DNA of 64,000 nucleotides from Eledone cirrhosa (Eukaryota): NCBI GenBank assembly GCA_964016885.1, contig OZ024741.1, positions 301,692,001 through 301,756,000 of the forward strand. Reading direction: 5' to 3'. Shown piece by piece: positions 28,444-61,270 of this stretch (position 1 is the stretch's first letter; every line of letters begins with the position of its first letter). A model generated the notes under the pieces. It did not search any database, was not told the origin of the DNA, and saw only the letters and a list, made by a program, of their open reading frames with translations. The position numbers and the translations under genes are program-made.

Positions 28444-28808
28444 TATAAAGAAAAAGGGATGAAATCGAAAATGCAACTGAAGTCTTATTTTTTAAAAAAA
28501 TATATATATTTATTTGGTTCCTTTACCGGTTTCGCAGTTCTTCTGCTTTTCAAAAGGTGAGTTGAGATGGAGGGTCTGTGGTTTTTCTCACATCAGATGT
28601 GAGAAAAACCACAGACCCTCCATCTCAACTCACCTTTTGAAAAGCAGAAGAACTGCGAAACCGGTAAAGGAACCAAATAAATATATATATTTTTTAAAAA
28701 AATAAGACTTCAGTTGCATTTTCGATTTCATCCCTTTTTCTTTATACTTCCACTCGTGTAGGACACCTCGGTTATTTTTCATTTTGTAAAAAAAACCTCA
28801 CTTTCTAA
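28444..28808 (+). mobile_element. Fold-back mini-element family H (151-bp arms, centre 28595, tail 28747-28808)
   Basis: Essentially perfect palindrome between (TA)n tracts. Confidence 0.92.
28633..28670 (+). ncRNA. Variant hammerhead ribozyme (U3-A8 core); antisense copy at 28520-28557
   Basis: cctt-TTGAAAA-gcag-aagaa-ctgc-GAAA-ccgg-TA-aagg. Confidence 0.8.
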
Positions 28809-28964
28809 TATATATATATATATATATAAATATATATATATAAAACGAAGCCAAATTTAACATGTTTGACTTACTTATTTTATATATATATATATATATA
28901 TATATATATATATATATATATATATATATATATATATATATATATATATATATATATATATATA

Positions 28965-29238
28965 AAATAAGTAAGTCAAACATGTTAAATTTGGCTCCGT
29001 TTTCCATTGAGACTTAAGTCTGCTACTGTTTGAAGCGGTCAACGCGTGGTGGAGCAAGATAAATTTTGAAGTGTCGGTAAACAACCAACACATACTCAAA
29101 AGAAATCTTGCTCCACCACGTGTTGAGCGCTTCAAATAGTAGCGGACTTAAGTCGCAATGGAAAACAAACCCAAATTTAACGTTTGTCTTACTTATTTTA
29201 CATTACTTCGGAGTAAACAAACCAACCTGCTCAAAAAA
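28965..29238 (+). mobile_element. HHR-less non-autonomous fold-back element sharing the family B 3' end
   Basis: Arms ~28965-29060 / 29105-29198. cggagtaaacaaaccaacctgc and caaccaacacatactcaaaa match the family B tail at 9870-9958. Confidence 0.7.
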
Positions 29239-29914
29239 AATATATATATATATATATATATACAAACAGATACAGAGAAAGAGAAAGTGAGATAATGAAA
29301 GAAAAGCATCTATATAGTTCACGGTATTTAATCCAAATTCGAGTAATAAAAAATGGCTGCTGTAAATGCGTTAATACAGTAAGTTGCAAATTCACAAGGC
29401 AATCAAATTCTTATATATTCATTGCAGTTTATAAGTATTTACTAGGGGCATTGTTAACGTTCTGGATCGATTATCTACGAACATGCAGCTACTAGTCTAC
29501 TTATCTGTTTCATCCCCAGGATATTTTCGATGTTCTTATGCTTCTAATCCCTGCTATACCGCAGAGAGTTCTTAAATAATTATCTATTCCAAGGCTTTCT
29601 TTTGTTTTGCTTGTTTATCTATTTGTGTGTATGTGTATGTGTGTGTGAGAAGGAGAGTGCGTGTGTATGTGTGTCTTTGTGTGTGTGTGTGTGTGTGTGT
29701 GTGTGTGTGTGTATGTGTGTGTGTGTGTGTGTGTGTGTGTGTGTGTGTGTGTGTGTGTATGTGTGTGTGTGTGTGTGTGTGTGTGTGTGTGTGTGTGTGT
29801 GTGTGTGTGATTAGCAGACTGTATGTAATCAAATATACCCTGTACTGAGTATATCGTTATACAATACTGTTCTGTTAATGACATTATCCTCAATTAAAAC
29901 GTTGCTATAGTGAG

Positions 29915-57142: not shown

Positions 57143-59474
57143 ATTATTATTATATACAATTATTAATATTATTATATATATATATATGTGTGTGTATGTG
57201 TGTGTGTGTGTGTTTGTGTGTGTATGTGTGCGCGCGCGCGTGTGTGTGTGTGTGTGTAGTTCAAGGAGACAACAAACAGAGGTACAAAAAGTCTTACTAG
57301 TTTTACGCTTTATATTGGAAAGAGGAAAGAAAGATCGACGTGTCAGGCTTCAGGAGTACGAAATAGGGACAGGATCACAATGGAGAAACGATCCAGTAAA
57401 GACACACAAAAAATATATATATATATATATGCGTGTGTGTGTGTGCATTACGATTTAAATTTTTCATTTATTATATAGATAATGAAAAAAGGGGGCAGGG
57501 GTAAAGAAGGGCAGGTCATTCCTTTACTTTCCTATACAACCTGATCTGCCCCTTTTTTTTCATTGCTCTTTTTGTCTTTATTTTTTTTTTATATTTCCAT
57601 CAATGTATAACTCCAGTCTGTAAAATATAGTTGACAATATGTTTGTGTATAACAGATAACAAAATAAAATTCCATTGTTAACATTGACACAAAATATATA
57701 AAGTAATACAAAAAATAGACATGGTTAAGTTTCAGGTTAAATGCATGAGATATTGATCAGGTGTCTTTTATCCATGTGGATGCACTACAACGTGAAACTG
57801 AATAGACGGAGAATGTCTGGATGTATTGAGAAGTTTAAAATATTTGTTGCTTGAAATTACAATTTTCAAATTAATAGATAAATAATTTCCATGTCGGAAT
57901 TATTTTCATAAAAAAATTAAATCTGCAGCAAAATGCTCCCTCTACTTAAATAATCGAATAACTAGATCTCTTAATTGGACATCAAAGATCTCCAGAGATG
58001 CTTTATAGTGTGCAGTAAAACAGAAAATTAGCTTACAATTTCTGACACTGGCCGTGTACTGTAAAGATATGAAATTGCGATAATTACTTTAATGCCTATA
58101 GTTTTTAACAATTAGTTTTCATAGATGATCGTATTGCCGTGTTGTTTGATTTATTATTCATTCTGTCTTGACAGCTTATAGTCAAAGATGCATCAGATAA
58201 TAGTTGATAATCTACAGGGAAAACGGTGTCCGAAAAATCGTTTGTGTACATCGTCACCAATCATGTATTAAAACATTTTTTTTTTCTGTTCCACATTCGA
58301 TGGAGGAATGATTCAAGAAGAATAGACATATATATATATATATATATATATATATATATATATATATATATATATATATATATATATATATATATATATA
58401 TATATATATAGAAAGATTTGAATGGATACAGTTTAGTTGAAAGGAATTTATTGACACGTGTTTCTATAACAGTTACATAACCTAAAACAGCTGCTATCTA
58501 CAAACTTTTAGTTATGCAGACATTCAATATTTCAATGTTATTATTTACTGTCATTTCATCAGAATAATATTACTGAGGACCTATTTAGTTTTTATAGAGA
58601 ATATTAGGAGGGAGGGGTGAAGTTGTTAGAGGAATAGTTGAAGGAGTGGTTTTTCGATAGCAGTGAGAATTCTTGGTGGCAGTGAGTAATTAGATTCCCA
58701 TCTGTTGTTTTGACATTTTTTATAGAATATATTATTGGTTATTTATAGAAGGATTAGAGATAGTAAAGATATGCGTGGTTGGTTTTGTGTTTGCACTTAA
58801 TTAACATTCAGACTTAAATTTTTTTTCTTTCAAGTGTAAGTATCCTTTCACCCACGCATTCACACATATATTTGCACACCTCTACAAAATACATATACTC
58901 ACAATTCACATATTCATACTTACATATATATACACATGCATACACATATATATACACACATGTATTCATGTACATACATACGCGCTCATGTGTATACATT
59001 TTCATACTCAACTTATCTTTATATACACACGTATAGACACACACATATATACATACATACTCTAGTCCATGTGTACACACATACACATACATACACATCT
59101 ATATACACATATATACATACATATATATATATATATATATATATATATATATATATATATATATATATATATATATATATATATATATATGTATATATAT
59201 ATATAAGCACTTTAATACATGAATACACTTACATCTAACTATACACATCAAACGTATATATATATTTACTTATTTATATACATTTTCACATATATATACA
59301 TACTTATGGACGTTTTTAGACACATTCATTATCGCATATTTGCACCTATTCTCATCAGCATATCTTTCCATTATTAGTGTGGTAATTTAAGGTTATTAAT
59401 ATATGTTGAGAAGAGATTGTTTTTATATTTTTCTAACTAGATTAAGGTTTATATAGTTGGGGGATGTCCCTCTT

Positions 59475-59775
59475 TTATGTAATATTCGGCTTGTAGTGGG
59501 AAAAAAGGGTTTTAGTTCTGTGACGGCAGAATAATGTTCGTTCAATTCTGTTATTCAGCAGTTTCTTCTTGTGTGTGATTATGTAATAAATCTCAAGATT
59601 ACACAATTTGCAGAAATTTTGGCTCCTGGAAAAGCTTTGGGTTTTAGCTAATTTCTCCCATTTTAGGGTAAACTTTTGATCGCTATCCCTGAGCGTCCAA
59701 GCTTTTTCTGCTAAAGTTGTTACATTTCTTTGGCTCTGGTGTTTTATTGAGTAAGAATGCCTATACAATCGAGAT
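59475..59775 (-). pseudogene. Hydra-like PLE GIY-YIG C-terminal fragment; UTR extends to ~58410 with degenerate HHR at 58522-58566
   Basis: RLYRH.YS...TTLAEKAWTLR..LKWEKL..CKLCNLEIYYI..LLNNRIE..FCRH. HHR reverse complement reads att-CTGATGA-aatg..catt-GAAA. Confidence 0.8.
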
Positions 59776-59785
59776 TTATATATAT

Positions 59786-61270
59786 ATAGTTAGGGAAGCA
59801 GAAAATTGCTTTTTGTGATCCAGTTCGTGGTTAAGAAAGCCAGTTTAATGGATGGTTTCAACGTACGGTTAGGGGTAACTCCACAAGTTTGTAAGAATTC
59901 CGTTCAATCTTGGAGTATAAAGTATAAAAGAGAAAACACAGGTAAGCATTAAGAGAAGGATTTTATCCAGGTATTTATGACCGTTTCATTGGTAAGTGCA
60001 ACCTTATATTGCTATACTGCAAATAGCAGCCACTCAATTATAATTGTTGTTCACAGTCCAAATTTTCAAAATAGTGTGTAAGTTACTCTTGAAATAATTC
60101 TTAATATATAGAGAAAAACATTTATTTGGAATTGTATTTACTAGTATAGAGAGAGGGGAATCAGAAGGTGAGGGGACTAACGGAATAGTATAGAGAGAGC
60201 GACTGGGAATACATTTAAAGCCCGTTGGTATACACACCGTTACGCAATGAAACATTCCCAGCATCGTTATGTAACTACCCTTGCAAACAAGACCTGGCAA
60301 CTGAGGGAAAGTAACCATCAATACACCCTGAAGTGGAAAAAATATCGAACGCGCCCCCATATCGGAGTGGTATGAGAAGCTGTCGATTATGCGACCTTGA
60401 GCTGTTCCACATCTTGAGTTCGAAGAATAAGTTACTCAACAATAAAATCGAAAGATCAATTTATTGTAACCACAGACTCAAAGAGAAGTTTTCGCACTAC
60501 AAATGCAAATCGAACCCTTAACCTCTTACTACCAACTGACAAACTGCATATACTTAGACTTTATACTCTCTTGTTGTATCTAAACCCTTTTAATTACCCA
60601 CAAAAACCAATACCTATATGCCCCCCTACTCCTTCATTCCTCTTCTATTTCTTCGTTTTTTCTTCCTTCCTTCCCTCCCCTTCTTGGTTGTCTTTTCTTT
60701 TCTTCTTTCTCCCCCCCCCCCCCCTTCTTTGCTTTTATTTTTGTCATTATTATCTTTATCTTTATTTTATATATATATATTTATCTCTTTATATCTCCCC
60801 CCCCCCTCTCTCTCTCTCTCTTTCTCTCTCTCTACTCTCTATCCATCCCTCCCACTATGATCAATTTAATTCTCTTTAACTCACTACATTCCACGACATG
60901 AAGTCTGCTATCAAAACTGATCAAGGAATCCTTCCACCTCTACCCCTCCCTCCATCTCAGTTTGTCACTCTACTTCCTAACTCTTCCCCCTTCCTCTCTC
61001 TCTATACTATTCCGTTAGTCCCCTCACCTTCTGATCCTCTCTCTATATACATGTAAATACAATTCCAAATAAATGTTTTTCTCTATATATTAAGAATTAT
61101 TTCAAGAGTAACTCATTATTTTGAAAATTTGGACTGTGAACAACAATTATAATTGAGTGGCTGCTATTTGCAGTATAGCAATATAAGGTTGCACTTACCA
61201 ATGAAACGGTCGTAAATACCTGGATAAAATCCTTCTCTTAATGCTTACCTGTGTTTTCTCTTTTATACTA
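59786..61270. mobile_element. Inverted PLE insertion, family I (arms ~59922-60200 / ~60995-61270; tail 59786-59921 on minus)
   Basis: Reverse-complement arms, with a GIY-YIG remnant at ~60210-60521 (LKWKK..PYRSGMRSCRLCDLELFHI..LLNNKIE..CNH). Confidence 0.85.
61117..61218 (+). ncRNA. Variant hammerhead ribozyme (U3-A8 core, long stem II); antisense copy at 59972-60073
   Basis: tatt-TTGAAAA-tttgg...ccaat-GAAA-cggtcg-TA-aata. Confidence 0.7.

Follow-up and report, generated by a model that had tools for sequence, protein, structure and literature searches.

A stretch of 64,000 nucleotides of the Eledone cirrhosa genome (GenBank assembly GCA_964016885.1, contig OZ024741.1, positions 301,692,001 to 301,756,000; here called the window) carries nine type I hammerhead ribozyme motifs in which the core pair between positions 3 and 8, canonically C3-G8, is U3-A8. 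The locus raises the question of whether this double change marks a ribozyme kept under selection, as a preliminary description of the window had proposed, or the AT-biased decay of C3-G8 copies. Five of the motifs belong to family H, a Neptune-type Penelope-like element (PLE), two to family I, a Hydra-clade PLE, and two to family R, a 319-nt retrozyme, all three assigned from sequence features. Six insertions (three H, one I and two R) account for the nine motifs, the antisense copies being inverted arms. We consider it probable that active masters of PLE and retrozyme families switched repeatedly from C-G to U-A, with the pair kept by purifying selection on self-cleavage.

Pairing of positions 3 and 8 across families and copies

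Motifs were collected with a scanner that took all sixteen combinations at positions 3 and 8. In an even sample of 128 evenly spaced 10-kb stretches (1.28 Mb of the 3.0-Gb genome) it returned 85 matches, comprising 72 C3-G8, 8 U3-A8 and 5 other cores, a U3-A8 share of about 10%. The reversed sequence of this sample gave 12 matches (1 U3-A8) and three shuffles together gave 8; the matches stand far above these controls, which excludes a chance origin of the motifs. The family-level census drew on 2.03 Mb of genome, much of it targeted, in which 323 matches formed 43 clusters. Among the 21 families found at two or more loci, 14 have C3-G8, 6 have U3-A8, 1 has C3-A8 and none has U3-G8 (Fisher test, p = 1.3e-4, kinship between families ignored), and the 3-8 position is paired in 20 of the 21. 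The 22 single-locus clusters consist of 16 C3-G8, 2 U3-A8, 2 U3-G8, 1 C3-A8 and 1 U3-U8, and both of the U3-G8 clusters are decayed copies of the C3-G8 family J that had been fetched on purpose.

The nominal C3-A8 family, c33, at first sight counts against so clean a census, with six C3-A8 scanner matches versus five. Its aligned rows hold 13 C3-A8 and 14 C3-G8 copies, in a sample that was pulled by a C3-A8 query and is 89-94% alike to the query copy, and its C7-G8 CpG shows both deamination products (L106:4740-4860; L243-L262). We rejected c33 as a mismatch-fixed family on the grounds of CpG decay at positions 7-8 with both products present. A CpG at these core positions is also a ready mutational route to A8.

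Beyond H, I and R, the U3-A8 families are c16, c35 and c32. The core is U3-A8 in 31 of 32 rows of c16, which is linked to a Hydra-type frame and has at least 40 copies that are 100% identical over 121 nt; a recently active master therefore carried U3-A8. Family c35 (L108:6770-6900 on the minus strand, L293-L295 and L299) is U3-A8 in 29 of 29 rows and forms a 570-nt tandem unit with an 8-9-bp stem I and a long stem III; it gave 1,296 first-look candidates. Family c32 is the sister of I, and the two keep U3-A8 at an endonuclease divergence of about 30%, with coordinated changes in their stems.

Conservation among copies tells a different story from conservation among families. The preliminary description had taken the fixation of the double change across copies as a sign of selection, an argument that fails at the level of copies. 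A pattern of 32 bases has 11,233 exact genome matches in family H and 0 when reversed. Hand counts from full listings of about 11,200 copies put the number with a change at position 3 at 61 (C in 35, G in 15, A in 11) and at position 8 at 92 (G in 47, U in 27, C in 18), compared with 39 at position 7, which is free; none of the 61 copies without U3 is C3-G8. Positions 3 and 8 thus drift at least as fast as a free position, and their fixation across copies reflects descent from U3-A8 masters. Dispersed copies drift in a neutral-looking way at both positions, and we rejected copy-level conservation as a proof of selection. In R, 97 of the first 100 matches listed are U3-A8 and 3 have single changes.

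Family J provides the reciprocal view, as 370 of its copies lack C3. Among the first 100 of these listed, 67 have U3, of which 63 keep G8 and 3 have A8, so that decay of C3-G8 copies gives mismatches rather than pairs. The three scattered doubles led us to reject a U3-A8 subfamily within J. Decay without selection would draw on these doubles, on the 33% G+C of the window and on the ease with which CpG decay gives A8 in c33. Single mismatches are about 20 times commoner than doubles, yet no family is fixed for U3-G8; the c16 master was U3-A8 while recently active; and motif G+C, leaving the core aside, ranges from 0.32 to 0.56 in U3-A8 families, no lower than the 0.25-0.56 of C3-G8 families. 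Decay of this kind is already contradicted, and we find it scarcely credible as an explanation. The earlier preference for selection over decay is upheld between families, where mismatched cores are not as frequent in consensuses as U3-A8. The paired 3-8 position is likely selected between families and not within copies.

Lineages carrying the U3-A8 core

The claim that the swap occurs in three unrelated lineages was likewise borne out. Sensitive blastn among H, I and R found nothing in common beyond TA repeats. In an unrooted endonuclease tree, built from 18 rows and 146 alignment columns of a single domain and subject to a long-branch warning, H groups with J outside the Hydra group, and I and c32 fall together with two C3-G8 families (100/99). 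An initial tree was already known when clades, defined by core state, were put to the test: a single clade of H, I and c32 was rejected (p-AU 1.7e-7), as was one of I, c32 and c16 (p-AU 8.3e-5), and a clade of I and c32 was not rejected (p-AU 0.35). R has a C3-G8 sister, c36, with 78% identity over 202 nt, known from one whole motif. The tree rejections and this sister together give at least four U3-A8 lineages, namely H, I with c32, c16 and R, with c35 unplaced. From these comparisons the swap likely arose four or more times in this genome. That C-G is the ancestral 3-8 state we infer from its prevalence rather than from a rooted tree, and elements may also have exchanged modules.

The motifs of the window have the UGANNA core, GAAA and UH site in order around three helices, as in type I hammerheads, with the canonical C3/G8 identity absent and a U-A Watson-Crick pair at 3-8 in all nine. 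The seven U3-A8 sites of the preliminary description, whose coordinates mark the first base of stem I (for 59972, its low end), are all real and hammerhead-shaped, with U3-A8, GAAA and a UH site at each. Its statement that stems I-III are retained throughout needs correction, as one helix is broken beside the core in two of the nine copies: 61582 lacks the core-proximal pair of stem I, and stem III is broken at 59972. An Rfam search of the window returned no hammerhead at gathering score; the R copies reached 26.9 and 24.2 bits against HH9 (cut-off 52), the H and I motifs gave no hammerhead match at E up to 1, and the gathering score was not reached at the c16, c35 and c36 loci.

By its protein motifs H is a Neptune-type PLE, as first labelled, Nematis being a possible alternative placement. 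A 770-aa frame in genome stretch L100 joins a reverse transcriptase (RT) to a GIY-YIG endonuclease, both matched by Pfam (RVT_1 and GIY-YIG), and shows GxKF, DKG, a CX4CxxC linker and CCHH, that is, every Neptune feature (GxKF, DKG, CX2-5CxxC linker, CCHH, C-terminal GIY-YIG). An endonuclease remnant with the CX4CxxC linker at 48333..48875 (+ strand) is 88% identical to this frame. The hammerhead is located in the pseudo-long terminal repeat (pLTR), 1.0 kb after the endonuclease, and one copy lies in the 3' pLTR of a 5'-truncated element (49867..49904, +, U3 at 49871). The other two insertions each contain a plus-strand motif and an inverted arm: 28633..28670 (U3 at 28637), with all stems intact, is paired with 28520..28557 (-, U3 at 28553), and 26513..26550 (U3 at 26517) with 26400..26437 (-, U3 at 26433). 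Stem I has 4 bp, or 3 bp in the copies at 26513 and 49867, stem II has 4 GC-rich bp, stem III is a 6-nt palindrome and position 17 is A. A TATA-like box and likely transcription start, placed from the piled-up 5' ends of copies, lie at 49799..49829 (+), about 42 nt upstream of U3. The pLTR (49700-49830) combines this TATA-like box with a CCAAT-like box and an upstream GC-rich motif that is kept in a sister family and may resemble an E2F site. In H, I and c32 the core presumably reads like a CHR cell-cycle element.

Family I is a Hydra-clade PLE by its protein motifs, again in agreement with the first label. The I-linked frames (stretches L102 and L091) show RWK, DKT, a CxCX5C linker and CxxC and CxH near the end, with no CCHH; the features of the Hydra clade are present, including (TA)n targets, and Pfam gave no match on the I frame. 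The window contains a 5'-truncated element (60199..61274, +) with a C-terminal endonuclease remnant at 60199-60500 followed by the 3' untranslated region and pLTR. Its hammerhead, 0.6-0.9 kb after the endonuclease frame in this family and within the pLTR, lies at 61117..61218 (+, U3 at 61121), and the inverted arm with the broken stem III (G-to-A at 16.2) lies at 59972..60073 (-, U3 at 60069). Stem I consists of 4 A-U bp, stem II starts with a U.U mismatch and carries a long insert (75 nt in all), stem III is an 8-nt near-palindrome and position 17 is A. On the minus strand at about 58450-59800 is a Hydra-type endonuclease remnant of a relative of I, family c13, with a C3-G8 hammerhead that has a long stem II 930 nt downstream.

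R is, on the evidence of its sequence, a non-autonomous, non-coding retrozyme. The AT-rich non-coding unit recurs at 319-nt spacing with one type I hammerhead in each, within the range of retrozymes (150-450-nt non-coding tandem units), and the predicted circle is highly self-paired (-72.2 kcal/mol, z -5.7 versus 100 shuffles). Most insertions have 1-2 units and the largest about 3; their 3' ends are fixed and their 5' ends variable and often inverted, as in PLE insertions. The core has 132 exact genome matches (0 for the reversed pattern), and a downstream 30-mer has 362. The insertion at 47704..48160 (+, about 1.4 units, inverted arm at about 47617-47706) holds the hammerhead at 47978..48022 (+, U3 at 47982, predicted cut after 48018), and its 5' end lies 4 nt past the predicted cut site of the preceding unit. 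The second insertion (61346..61764, +) holds the copy with the broken stem I pair (61582..61626, +, U3 at 61586). Stems I and II have 4 bp each, stem I being bulged and extendable, stem III is a 12-nt palindrome and position 17 is C. A competing fold is available at 47978-48018, in which the first core bases and the 5' strand of stem I bind the 5' half of stem III; it would become perfect with C at position 3, a possible local reason for U3. C3-G8 retrozyme-like tandem arrays occur in stretches L215 and L103 (c4 and c5), c4 being 68% alike to R over 400 nt.

Insertion junctions and self-cleavage

Junctions at the 5' ends of insertions were counted as matches to a fixed 20-22-mer whose two immediately preceding bases both depart from the family sequence. 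In R, 20 junctions (18 events) fall at the predicted cut site, versus 6 at -1, 3 at -14 and 5 at +38 (excess over +38, p = 0.002). Across 40 R loci taken in genome order, 5' ends occur at 13 of 1,222 bases at risk around the site and at 34 of 8,170 elsewhere (p = 0.006), for an interval chosen after looking. In H, raw, unnormalised hand counts gave 105 junctions at the cut site, 70 at +4, 21 at -5, 46 at -13 and 80 at +45, with one-base deletions making up 19 of the 100 cut-site junctions listed. Among AT-flanked H junctions, again by hand, 44 lie at the cut site versus 16, 9 and 14 at control offsets, about threefold. These excesses in R and H suggest a trace of occasional cutting, and RT stalling or fold-back may be another source.

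One could suppose that the motifs no longer cut, the paired core being a relic or a folded signal for a PLE protein and the junctions a product of RT stalling or fold-back. The lack of a junction excess in I, the weak predicted folds and the AA-flanked half of the R site junctions, which fits fold-back at the palindromic stem I strand, would all agree with this, as would the anole PLE PAc, in which ribozyme-dead mutants insert normally in vitro (Frangieh et al. 2024, PMC11167929). Against it, the 3-8 pair is formed only in the active conformation (PMC3884650), which makes recurrent double changes difficult to account for if catalysis plays no part; junctions in R peak at the scissile bond (20 versus 6 at -1); and the full fold-back palindrome is found in only one R event. 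We hold a complete loss of cutting to be very unlikely. In PAc the 3-8 pair is needed for cleavage, which a double swap rescues in part (PMC11167929).

The main peak of H junctions lies elsewhere. At the likely start 832 junctions were counted, this dominant position being about 30 nt below the TATA-like box, and 27 of 49 mapped 5' ends lie at -43 to -31 relative to the core. Most H templates are thus likely promoter-initiated RNAs with the motif uncut. Such templates, and the more than 11,000 copies of H, could be taken to mean that U3-A8 is a positively selected brake, a slower ribozyme that spares promoter-initiated transcripts for retrotransposition and so aids amplification. The even sample nevertheless holds nine C3-G8 motifs for each U3-A8 (72 versus 8), sampling reached the C3-G8 family J 12 times and H 3 times, and motifs with a short stem III are poor monomer cutters whatever the core (Cervera and de la Pena 2014, PMC4209133). 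We therefore think a selected brake unlikely.

Under the explanation that we favour, purifying selection on self-cleavage after repeated switches, an ancestral C-G master would pass through a short-lived 3-8 mismatch, with G8-to-A the likelier change if N7 and G8 form a CpG, and continued amplification would be confined to masters in which pairing is restored. To cut at all, the motifs of H and I would have to dimerise through the palindromic stem III, with most monomeric transcripts left uncut and copied whole. Multimers of R would be cut into 319-nt units, circularise and be mobilised by PLE proteins. The 5' junctions found at the cut site would stem from the minority of templates that start at that point. 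U-A would be a tolerated equivalent of C-G and not a selected brake. A short palindromic stem III predicted to dimerise, as in the minimal hammerheads of PLEs, is present, with modelled self-duplexes of -10.3, -7.8 and -21.5 kcal/mol for the three families, and stem II is predicted to form in H and R. In-silico core swaps lowered helix formation in three of six U3-A8 families and raised it in one, and were not used as evidence.

Several results weigh against this explanation. The endonuclease tree covers a single domain (146 columns) and drew a long-branch warning, the direction of the swap is unrooted, and a search for a C3-G8 sister of H recovered no hammerhead in its nearest relatives. Without the 10 AA-flanked junctions the R excess falls to 10 versus 5 (p = 0.15), and two other intervals in the 40-locus test had 5'-end rates as high. 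The H start peak far exceeds its cut-site count (832 versus 105), and the I junctions show no cut-site excess (5 after removal of 4 one-base deletions, versus 7). Predicted monomer folds, computed without tertiary terms, give stem I a probability of 0.31 in H; in R it is disfavoured in local folding (0.01), likewise in the C3-G8 sister, and in I, with its four A-U pairs, it is 0.0. Cleavage of PAc is dispensable in vitro, with zero reads ending at the cut site in the part of the report available (PMC11167929).

Neighbouring motifs, known systems and implications

The window also contains five canonical C3-G8 hammerheads of four other families, at 15615-15659 (-), 19979 (-), 23298 (+), 26057 (+) and 26987 (+). 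The motifs at 19979 and 23298 are the arms of a large inverted repeat (19891-23386), and that at 26057 sits after the endonuclease of family J. Family K, a broken Hydra-type PLE in an inverted arrangement (4480-8100), has a C3-G8 hammerhead-like motif about 520 nt past its endonuclease. An RT-bearing non-LTR retrotransposon is present in several broken copies (33635-36116, 37278-38063, 38533-42085 and 53567-57143), with a C-terminal region that resembles a restriction-type endonuclease; it may be R4/Dong-like.

The U3-A8 swap is less exceptional than the preliminary description, which called it rare, had supposed: it was already in print for PLEs, and three further families carry it in this genome. 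Natural U3-A8 covariation, a change already known to be active in vitro, was reported in several examples (Perreault et al. 2011, PMC3088659), and the same covariation is found here, with paired and mismatched cores counted by family, unlike in the parts of that study available. About 1,300 U3-A8 motifs occur in the Cercyon PLEs of Schistosoma mansoni, for which action as dimers and low activity were proposed (PMC4209133). H and I resemble these elements in having U3-A8 in terminal repeats, in dispersed single copies and inverted pairs, with a palindromic stem III, and the present case differs in that several lineages (Neptune-type, two Hydra and a retrozyme) stand beside C3-G8 relatives in one genome, and in the short 4-bp stem II of H and R and the long inserted stem II of I (PMC4209133). 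Literature searches by U3-A8 wordings found only this 2014 paper using them, and searches on hammerheads in Octopus or cephalopod Penelope elements found nothing on U3-A8, although supplements may list more motifs.

H shares GxKF, DKG, CX2-5CxxC, CCHH and insertion in (TA)n with the Neptune clade, and I shares RWK, DKT, CxCX5C, the lack of CCHH and insertion in (TA)n with the Hydra clade (Craig et al. 2021, PMC8557442, in whose available passages core variants are not mentioned). The U.U at the base of stem II in I is also seen in axolotl HHR_Amex2 (PMC7229834; bioRxiv 10.64898/2026.07.22.740005). Like animal non-LTR retrozymes (Cervera and de la Pena 2020, PMC7229834), R has an AT-rich unit (319 nt) that codes for no protein, contains a single type I hammerhead and is predicted to form a stable circle; it differs in having mostly 1-2 units, PLE-like fixed 3' ends, inverted 5' arms and a U3-A8 core, a variant not mentioned for retrozymes in the parts available. 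Retrozymes have been described as PLE derivatives (Li et al. 2026, bioRxiv 10.64898/2026.07.22.740005). The Poseidon element PAc of Anolis likewise has uncut RNA as its main template, as we infer for H; it differs in its C3-G8 core and in that no RNA ends were observed at its cut site (PMC11167929); at the corresponding site of R and H, DNA junctions are in slight excess.

The U3-A8 variant itself was already known; new, though no more than suggestive, is the junction excess at the predicted cut site in R and H. The hidden hammerhead population anticipated by the preliminary description is borne out: searches limited to C3-G8 miss about a tenth of the hammerheads here, some 19,000 in a rough extrapolation from 8 matches (95% range 8,000-37,000). 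At least four U3-A8 lineages beside C3-G8 relatives, including a retrozyme sister pair, make a natural experiment within one genome. A more speculative idea, which we regard as rather doubtful, is that cutting in vivo leaves a single-base footprint in insertion junctions and that evolution has repeatedly arrived at the C-G to U-A swap as a rate control that sets the cut and uncut shares; if true, junction counts in matched sister families would be a genome-scale readout of PLE ribozyme activity. The junction excess, if confirmed, bears on whether PLE hammerheads cut in vivo at all.

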